Shown here: one piece after another, positions 48,608 to 49,674 of the stretch | How the letters are laid out: each line of letters opens with the position of its first letter | How positions within the stretch are numbered: position 1 is the first letter of the stretch | Sequence record: KX452698 | Strand: one strand, 5' to 3' | DNA from: Shigella phage KNP5 | Length of the DNA stretch: 64,000 nucleotides | Program-made: the position numbers and the translations under genes | The notes under the pieces: generated by a model | Databases searched by the model: none | What the model was told of the DNA's origin: nothing | The model's input: only the letters and a program-made list of their open reading frames with translations

Positions 48608-49468
48608 TTATATCGCCATCTTTCCTTTAATTGGCGGGTGAGATACATAGTTGTTAAGAACAAAATTATGCGGCTTTGCGAATTGACTCAACCAAAATAC
48701 CTGCGATTCTGTGTCCCATTCATCAAATTCATCTGGAAATTTTAATTGTAATTCGCATAAATCCATAGGTTCACGACGCAAAATTTCTTTACATTGTTCT
48801 ACGTGATTCATATAGATATGAGTATTACCACCAGAAAATATCAAATCTCCTGGAATAAGATTACACATCTTAGCTACAATATGAACTAACGTAGCATATG
48901 ATGCAATATTAAATGGAAGACCGAGGAAAACATCTACCGAACGTTGATACCACTGCAGATCCAAATAGCCATTACGCACATTAAACTGATAGAACATATG
49001 ACAAGGTGGTAATGCCATTTGCTTAAGTTCTGCCGGATTCCATGCTGAAACAATTTGACGTCTATCATTTGGCAGTTTTTTAATACGTTCAACAACTTCT
49101 ATAATTTGGTCTACGCCACCAAAATCGCGCCACTGTTTTCCATAAATTGGACCAAGTTCACCGCTATGGTATCCTAAATCTTTTGCTTGATTTTCGTAAT
49201 TTTCATCCCAGACTGTTTTGCCTTGAATTAATGAATCATGTTGAATTAATCGCAAATCATTGACATTTGTGCTTCCCGATAAAAACCATATTAGCTCAGC
49301 AATACAGGCTTTCCATGCTAATTTTTTAGTTGTTACCGCAGGAAAACCTTTAGTTAAATCCCAGCGTAATTTAGTACCAAACAAAGCAATTGTTCCTGTG
49401 CCTGTTCGGTCATCGGTTTCGTAACCATTTTCCAGGATATCTTTAATTAAAAATTGGTATTGTTTCAT
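48608..49468 (-). CDS. td: thymidylate synthase, uninterrupted
   Basis: ATG 49468 (MKQYQ...) gives 286 aa; active-site PCH (ALPPCHMFYQF); no intron; ORF-track start 49480 is TTG. Confidence 0.93.
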   Translation of the reverse strand: MKQYQFLIKDILENGYETDDRTGTGTIALFGTKLRWDLTKGFPAVTTKKLAWKACIAELIWFLSGSTNVNDLRLIQHDSLIQGKTVWDENYENQAKDLGYHSGELGPIYGKQWRDFGGVDQIIEVVERIKKLPNDRRQIVSAWNPAELKQMALPPCHMFYQFNVRNGYLDLQWYQRSVDVFLGLPFNIASYATLVHIVAKMCNLIPGDLIFSGGNTHIYMNHVEQCKEILRREPMDLCELQLKFPDEFDEWDTESQVFWLSQFAKPHNFVLNNYVSHPPIKGKMAI

Positions 49469-49674
49469 TAGTTCATCCAAGAATATGTAGAAGGATATTT
49501 AGCAAAGTTAGGCTTATATCCTAATTTAACCATTTGTTTTGCTTTGCGAGTAAATCCTAAAGAACGCTCACCTTTAAGATATTGTTTTGGTGTCATAGGC
49601 CCTTGATGCATCTGCCGACAAATAAAAAGAGCCATAGCATTAGGAACATCCTTAACTTTTAATTTATTGCTCAT
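49468..49674 (-). CDS. small basic protein inserted between frd and td
   Basis: 68-aa ORF; start forms ATGA with frd stop, stop forms TAATG with td start. Confidence 0.65.

Follow-up and report, generated by a model that had tools for sequence, protein, structure and literature searches.

We show that the junction between frd and td in Tequatrovirus and Dhakavirus carries three mutually exclusive alleles, one of which is a 68-codon gene, ORF68, lying between the genes for dihydrofolate reductase and thymidylate synthase. The conservation of ORF68 confirms it as a genuine protein-coding gene under purifying selection and, judged by its divergence relative to that of the flanking genes, a 206-nt cassette carrying it has recently moved between genera. 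The reading we favour, and consider probable, is that ORF68, a member of the PHROG 9550 family, is a true gene with a dispensable, accessory role: a coupled, laterally moving junction allele whose product is a putative polyanion binder. A three-allele junction and a precisely bounded transfer between genera are of modest interest. The gene itself is ordinary, an accessory ORF of the T4 type with modest value as a clean, well-bounded example of T4-like variation.

The window, which is the whole 64,000-nt stretch of Shigella phage KNP5 DNA analysed here (sequence record KX452698), is a segment of a Tequatrovirus (T4-like) genome, and the 607 nt tested were 100% identical to Escherichia phage KNP1. 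The features concerned are as follows.

49468–49674, minus strand: ORF68 coding sequence, stop codon included (ORF list, sequence, PHROG 9550 match, dN/dS, charge and pI)
49671–49674, minus strand: ATGA overlap of the ORF68 start with the frd stop (sequence, alignment with T4, JS98 and P8, junctions of relatives)
49466–49470, minus strand: TAATG overlap of the ORF68 stop with the td start (sequence, junctions of relatives)
49474–49478, minus strand: GGATG within the Trp66-Met67 codons, candidate Shine-Dalgarno sequence of td (read from the sequence)
49469–49674, minus strand: 206-nt segment missing in T4 and in Dhakavirus IME08 (alignment, three-way identity profile)
49671–50252, minus strand: frd, dihydrofolate reductase, 193 aa (ORF list, identity to T4 Frd, annotation of phage P8)
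48608–49468, minus strand: td, thymidylate synthase, 286 aa, intron-less (ORF list, tblastn)

ORF68 and its family

A sequence-only reading of this DNA had reported a 68-codon ORF between frd and td. The ORF is present and its translation is the peptide quoted there. It lies on the minus strand, a point that reading had left unstated, with its start at 49674 and its end at 49468. The ORF68 start codon (ATG, 49674–49672) overlaps the frd stop codon (TGA, 49673–49671) to form ATGA, and its stop codon (TAA, 49470–49468) has one base in common with the td start codon (ATG, 49468–49466) to form TAATG; both overlaps had been described, and both can be seen in the sequence. The flanking genes are recognizable from their products: Frd of the window is 92% identical in amino acids to T4 Frd, and td gives one contiguous tblastn match covering residues 1–286, with no group I intron, whereas td of T4 and of T6 is split at residue 183/184 (tblastn). 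The T4 record bears out the direct overlap of frd and td, by 4 nt, that had been given as established for that phage. In a four-way alignment with JS98 and P8, T4 is without exactly 206 nt relative to the window, a difference bordered by a 5-nt direct repeat, AATGA, by which the edges of the segment are ambiguous. The segment behaves as a single-gene cassette.

ORF68 matched PHROG 9550 with E=1.3e-45, its residues 1–68 aligning with profile positions 1–68 of 68. This PHROG is the UniRef cluster "Uncharacterized protein, Tevenvirinae" (A0A449C5N9), with members of 66–108 aa such as Marfa gp177 (YP_009850431), CIP9 gp059 and phAPEC8 gp235. ORF68 is a full member, having the same length, basic charge and conserved motifs, with no difference. 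Homologues were found in at least five Straboviridae genera or lineages and in unrelated large myoviruses, with the following amino-acid identities to ORF68 of the window.

Tequatrovirus: 97–100%
Dhakavirus (JS98 group): 98.5%
Klebsiella Marfavirus and relatives: about 80%
Enterobacter Kanagawavirus CIP9: 68%
Serratia phage 4S: 60%
Phapecoctavirus (phAPEC8 gp235): 43%

The family is small. An HMM search of 1.84 billion representatives returned about ten clusters, and 40 proteins, all unnamed and of phage or metagenome origin, came from a profile search covering 5.8 billion; a scan of IMG/VR added just eight loci, mostly from phages already found. A 1402-aa HMM match was dropped as a relative, being a translated tandem repeat. 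In family alignments K34, G40, M48 and G52 are invariant and K4, K6, P11, R20, A45, L51, Y53 and P55 nearly so, and the members have in common an N-terminal motif, M(S/K)(N/G)NK.KV..VP, followed by FGF...A..M..LGYKP.Y.

Selection on the protein is clear from dN/dS (Nei-Gojobori), which is 0.13–0.19 for ORF68 against Marfa, CIP9 and 4S at dS of 0.8–2.4. Together with the PHROG 9550 match, these values uphold the earlier proposal of a coding gene, and we infer its translation from this evolutionary evidence. Between the window and Marfa, the ORF68 proteins share 81% of their amino acids, the Td proteins 72% and the Frd proteins 49%; on this comparison ORF68 is about as conserved as Td and far more so than Frd.

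Interruption of the frame in close relatives was looked for. Homologues were present in 236 phage records (tblastn), and in 234 of them the ORF was intact, with at least 80% of ORF68 covered. In one metagenomic contig a +1 frameshift falls within an A-run of ORF68, as might be expected if the frame were open by chance or were a pseudogene in decay; the frameshift is single, sits in a homopolymer of eight A and has the look of an artefact of sequencing or assembly. With the intact records, the purifying selection on the protein and the identical 68-aa product encoded on 332 public contigs set against it, we give the chance-frame reading a negligible probability, and the conservation data can be said to have effectively refuted it already.

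The gene is thus already known as a catalogue entry: it is a "hypothetical protein" in more than 100 Tequatrovirus and Dhakavirus records, the name nearly always given to the identical sequence, and belongs to a deposited family without assigned function. Our search of the literature, which took in frd, td and td.1, Tequatrovirus accessory genes and the fPS phages, found nothing on ORF68 or PHROG 9550. The labels "flagellar biosynthesis protein" and "DUF4858" attached to homologues in P8, PYPS2T and Shinka found no support, as Pfam and NCBIfam searches were empty with E allowed up to 10 or 1. Members of the family are found in several groups of large enterobacterial phages, including phages isolated for therapy or biocontrol, and a function for it would annotate a highly conserved, strongly basic small protein.

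Three alleles and lateral transfer at the frd–td junction

Comparison of the frd–td junction across T4-like genomes, suggested earlier as a check, found three exclusive fillings. We searched with a synthetic T4-type junction composed of 200 nt of frd and 200 nt of td, which matched 559 records, and sampled the rows evenly. The distance spanned by the two halves of the query distinguishes the alleles.

400-nt span: direct overlap of frd and td (T4, T4T, Dhakavirus IME08, WG01, Bp7)
606-nt span: ORF68 (this window, KNP1)
about 816-nt span: a 115-aa ORF (T6 gp163, "td.1", AY262134; RB3, RB5, RB27, RB33, Bas35)

Among about 560 T4-like records, approximately 24% carry ORF68 (about 134 records), 66% the 115-aa ORF and 8–10% the empty junction, T4 included; these frequencies are rough because the record counts include duplicates and near-clones and do not represent independent lineages. 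A query in which the 115-aa ORF and ORF68 were concatenated matched 510 records at one place each, and both together in none. The description of ORF68 as inserted exactly between frd and td therefore holds for its position; it does not hold for T4 as the baseline, since the empty state is the minority condition given above. A single junction in core metabolism thus has three exclusive alleles.

The 115-aa ORF belongs to PHROG 1928. Like ORF68, T6 td.1 occupies the frd–td locus with a patchy, allelic distribution. In Tequatrovirus it differs from ORF68 in lacking overlap coupling, spacers of about 20 and 45 nt setting it apart from its neighbours, and in having Shine-Dalgarno-like and -10-like sequences of its own. 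We also considered whether ORF68 is a truncated form of the PHROG 1928 ORF or is related to it, and this was rejected: hhalign gave a probability of 0.3% (E=0.23), and the C-terminal motifs are only superficially alike. In other genera the two genes are neighbours. A PHROG 1928 ORF lies immediately upstream of ORF68 in Marfa (Marfavirus), in CIP9 (Kanagawavirus, with two copies) and in phage 4S, and the frd-proximal spacer of Marfa holds a decayed second PHROG 1928 copy, which translates to GRFVKHGSKLYFSPEHEKSY. The tandem arrangement in these three outgroup lineages suggests that frd, PHROG 1928, ORF68, td represents the older gene order. ORF68 may then have been resident at the junction from the ancestor onward, with some lineages losing it and recombination spreading it anew. 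The Tequatrovirus alleles would have been derived from the tandem state by deletions between ATGA-type microhomologies, and the ORF68 cassette could itself be removed when ATGA/AATGA microhomologies recombine and delete what lies between them.

The same arrangement allows a different reading, in which ORF68 and PHROG 1928 are functionally linked accessories of thymidylate synthesis, acting, for instance, as alternative or cooperating modulators of Td or of the dNTP-synthetase complex, or countering a host defence that detects or attacks phage nucleotide metabolism, and are swapped as single-gene cassettes under host-driven selection. Such a link would explain their exclusivity, the tandem in other genera, the constant linkage to td and the Td-like conservation of ORF68. 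We hold it to be doubtful.

Divergence between the window and JS98 differs sharply between ORF68 and the genes on either side of it.

ORF68: 97.6% nucleotide identity, dS 0.108
frd: 78.8% nucleotide identity, dS 1.16
td: 77.4% nucleotide identity, dS 1.75

Against Marfa, pS of the window is 0.50 for ORF68, 0.88 for td and 0.77 for frd. A three-way identity profile included IME08, a Dhakavirus whose frd–td junction is empty. In its last 150 nt, JS98 frd is 96–100% identical to IME08 and only 74–84% identical to the window; inside ORF68, JS98 is 96–98% identical to the window; and the first 50 nt of td show about 97% identity in every pair of the three genomes. A patch of high identity in JS98 reaching into td was rejected as part of the transferred segment, as the same stretch of about 97% is found in IME08, which has no ORF68. 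Given the divergence of frd and the generally conserved start of td, the transferred unit is ORF68 itself. The likely route would be homologous recombination in the conserved 3' end of frd and 5' end of td, and recombination in these short conserved flanks is enough to account for the transfer. The cassette has crossed genus boundaries with the overlaps proposed to couple it intact at both ends.

The excess of nucleotide identity in ORF68 over its flanks, which are 77–79% identical to JS98, could also mean that what is conserved acts at the nucleotide level, as a structured RNA or as a site regulating td, and that the reading frame is incidental; the comparison with Marfa (80% in ORF68, 63–68% in the flanks) points the same way. 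Against this, the substitutions are strongly biased toward synonymous ones, as the dN/dS values above indicate, and homologues at 30–45% protein identity retain the frame, the length and the charge. Rfam gave no match above noise, the segment folds no more stably than shuffled sequence (z=+0.77), and T4 and IME08 express td without it. We rate a nucleotide-level element as very improbable.

Precise 206-nt boundaries, near-identity across genera between flanks that differ by about 22%, and a patchy distribution within two genera are also what a selfish element would show. Free-standing homing-endonuclease genes of the seg and mob type are known for presence/absence polymorphism at precise points between conserved T4 genes and, like modular cassettes of T4-type phages, are transferred between related phages during co-infection. 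ORF68 could on this account be a mobile element of the homing-endonuclease type, or a remnant of one, spreading into empty frd–td junctions, and the 115-aa allele is indeed called "putative homing endonuclease" in some BASEL-collection records (Bas35). At 68 aa, however, ORF68 has no GIY-YIG, HNH, LAGLIDADG or other nuclease motif in Pfam, NCBIfam or PHROG and no fold match. The 115-aa ORF is likewise without a Pfam match, and ordinary recombination in the flanks suffices to account for the transfer. Unlike seg and mob genes, ORF68 also has no flanking promoter or stem-loop cassettes. We consider a selfish element unlikely, and the behaviour of ORF68 in the population appears by analogy to resemble the exchange of T4-type cassettes and alleles without a nuclease signature.

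ORF68 might also have been connected with the td intron, by shielding an intron-less td or by competing with I-TevI homing. This was rejected: ORF68 and I-TevI occur together in 58 records, which also counts against a selfish element of the homing type, and I-TevI accompanies the 115-aa ORF in 79. Both alleles are found with and without the td intron, so an intron-related role is not supported.

Among known T4 genes, ORF68 is most readily compared with frd.1, frd.2, frd.3, nrdA.1 and nrdA.2. These accessory ORFs of the same operon, likewise without assigned function, are also short same-strand ORFs packed between genes of nucleotide metabolism, with stops and starts that overlap or abut. T4 relatives differ in which of them they carry, and the ORFs are dispensable. 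They differ from ORF68 in belonging to other protein families, and ORF68, unlike them, is missing from T4.

Protein features and proposed function

The product of ORF68 has 68 aa, a mass of 7.9 kDa, a pI of 10.3 and a net charge of +10.6. Its description from the sequence as a basic protein extends to the whole family: in 25 of 25 members examined, down to about 30% identity, pI is 9.7–10.6 and net charge +8 to +17. The conserved basic residues are K4, K6, R20 and K34. With a shallow alignment AlphaFold reached a pLDDT of 56, and we used instead an AlphaFold2 model from a broader alignment (pLDDT 80, pTM 0.54), which has three short predicted helices, at residues 13–24, 29–39 and 43–50. The C-terminal tail is aromatic, and the N-terminal tail, which is basic and conserved, is less ordered.

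Database comparisons placed the protein in no other family. Pfam and NCBIfam gave no match for 21 family members, and PDB sequence profiles gave no meaningful match for the family. PADLOC-DB, a library that excludes anti-defence proteins, matched none of the 21 members. A Foldseek search of the model found nothing in the PDB and only its own family in BFVD. Neither profile nor fold searches detected a helix-turn-helix or another known DNA- or RNA-binding family or fold.

The suggestion that the basic composition reflects nucleic-acid binding is a plausible one given the charge kept across the family, which would be equally compatible with binding to acidic proteins or to membrane surfaces. We tentatively propose that ORF68 binds a polyanion, either nucleic acid or an acidic protein surface, and that it might act as a factor modulating the host or the infection, as opposed to an enzyme or a virion component. 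Its function would fall in the early or middle infection programme. Homologues outside the Straboviridae are located in extended runs of small ORFs on one strand, a layout typical of early or accessory regions, where they have no conserved neighbour, the flanking genes belonging to unrelated PHROGs without assigned function.

Expression and translational coupling

ORF68 is part of the gene string frd.3, frd.2, frd.1, ORF81, frd, ORF68, td. We found no sigma-70-like promoter or intrinsic terminator inside or adjoining it; promoter-like sites occur upstream of frd.3 and of frd.1, and the nearest terminator-like site follows gene 32 (51583–51565). Having no promoter or terminator of its own, ORF68 is embedded in the string from frd.3 to td and would be transcribed inside that unit. 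In the alignment with T4, the sequence through the ATGA before ORF68 is the sequence that precedes td in T4, so that ORF68 occupies the initiation site used there by td. ORF68 is most likely translated by termination-reinitiation coupling at the ATGA, and td would be reinitiated in turn from the ORF68 stop at TAATG. We infer coupled translation of ORF68 and td from this arrangement, and the frd-ORF68-td series would offer a simple three-gene chain for tests of translational reinitiation.

The junctions of relatives are consistent with coupling. The overlap signature singled out in the sequence-only reading is retained across five relatives, with one exception on the upstream side: of the five Straboviridae loci read, four have ATGA joining ORF68 to the gene before it, and Marfa has a 4-nt gap. 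In CIP9 and 4S the ORF preceding ORF68, too, ends in an ATGA overlap. Between ORF68 and td the junction is TAATG in P8, JS98, Marfa and 4S and GTGA in CIP9. Across 14 of 14 Straboviridae loci, td starts 0–3 nt after the last codon of ORF68, and this adjacency is kept even where one or two ORFs separate frd from ORF68.

So constant an association raises the possibility that ORF68 works with thymidylate synthase or the T4 dNTP-synthetase complex, as a partner or a modulator, with coupling to td fixing the ratio of the two proteins; td directly follows ORF68 in every one of these loci despite intervening ORFs upstream, and the conservation of ORF68, about as high as that of Td, favours the same view. 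However, none of nine loci with distant homologues, several of them near-duplicate contigs, has td or frd within 4–5 kb, and about three-quarters of Tequatrovirus records, T4 included, lack ORF68 although their Td is near-identical. A partner of Td or of the dNTP synthetase is the main rival to the polyanion-binder reading, and we give it a small but real chance; the accessory polyanion binder remains the reading we prefer.

The last codons of ORF68 may contribute to the start of td as well. Trp66 and Met67 are encoded by UGGAUG, 5 nt before the td ATG, which may act as a weak Shine-Dalgarno sequence for td; TGGATG is likewise found in Marfa.

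Additional ORFs around frd

Besides ORF68 (the 68-codon PHROG 9550 ORF between the dihydrofolate reductase gene frd and the thymidylate synthase gene td), the operon carries an 81-aa ORF whose end is joined to the frd start by a 1-nt, TAATG-type overlap.

Window 50252-50497 (-): 81-aa ORF, PHROG 3183

This ORF is absent from T4, where the frd.1–frd interval is only a 71-nt gap, and is present in P8, T6, RB5 and teqhal. Relative to T4, it is the second additional overlap-coupled ORF in the ORF68 operon.

Among Tequatroviruses, the most frequent occupant of the frd–td junction is a 115-aa PHROG 1928 ORF, unrelated to ORF68. 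AY262134 names it 'td.1', and BASEL-collection records annotate it as 'putative homing endonuclease'; no Pfam domain was found in it. An 8-nt direct repeat, AAATGAAA, lies on both sides of the insert.

L016 (T6) 1725-2072: 115-aa PHROG 1928 ORF; equivalents at L017, L018 and L019
L002 (Klebsiella phage Marfa) 2085-2144: unannotated frd–gp176 spacer

The translation of the Marfa spacer, GRFVKHGSKLYFSPEHEKSY, matches the PHROG 1928 C-terminal motif, and because of this the spacer appears to be a decayed second PHROG 1928 copy. The Enterobacter Kanagawavirus CIP9 has two PHROG 1928 copies, both intact.

Frame and annotation of ORF68 homologues

The frame of the JS98 homologue is intact and the protein 98.5% identical, despite the lack of a GenBank annotation; the record shows a 202-nt frd–td gap. 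The homologue on contig L028 carries a +1 frameshift that sits in an eight-A run (CCAAAAAAAATAT versus CCAAAACAATAT), which probably reflects an error made in sequencing or assembly and not a pseudogene.

L006 (JS98, EF469154) 2501-2707: ORF68 homologue, unannotated
L028 (IMGVR_UViG_2938479101_000007) 893-1097: ORF68 homologue with +1 frameshift

Where ORF68 is labelled 'flagellar biosynthesis protein' or 'DUF4858' (PV390659, phage P8; MH809535 / NC_054944, PYPS2T; phage Shinka), these are mislabels, neither being backed by Pfam or NCBIfam scans. We also rejected as spurious the HMM search match P0025, a 1402-aa protein unrelated to the phage family. It consists of tandem repeats of approximately 65 aa each with 'NVPSALGLHVCHQG', a string that mimics ORF68 residues 9-29, and looks like a translated repeat array.

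Putative transcription signals and the td intron

Window 51565-51583 (-): strong terminator-like hairpin (GGGGACC...GGTCCCC) with a trailing T-run, directly downstream of gene 32
Window 51532-51504: promoter-like site, after the hairpin
Window 49669-49676 (-): frd/ORF68 junction string TATAAATG
Window 48608-49468 (-): td, 286 contiguous codons, intron-less

The frd.3-to-td transcription unit probably begins at the promoter-like site. At the frd/ORF68 junction, TATAAATG matches the T4 late-promoter consensus (TATAAATA) at seven of eight positions; the same string is also found at the T4 frd/td junction.

The td gene of the window is uninterrupted, whereas that of T4, T6 and RB5 is split at residue 183/184 by a group I intron with I-TevI. 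I-TevI is carried by 58 ORF68-positive records.
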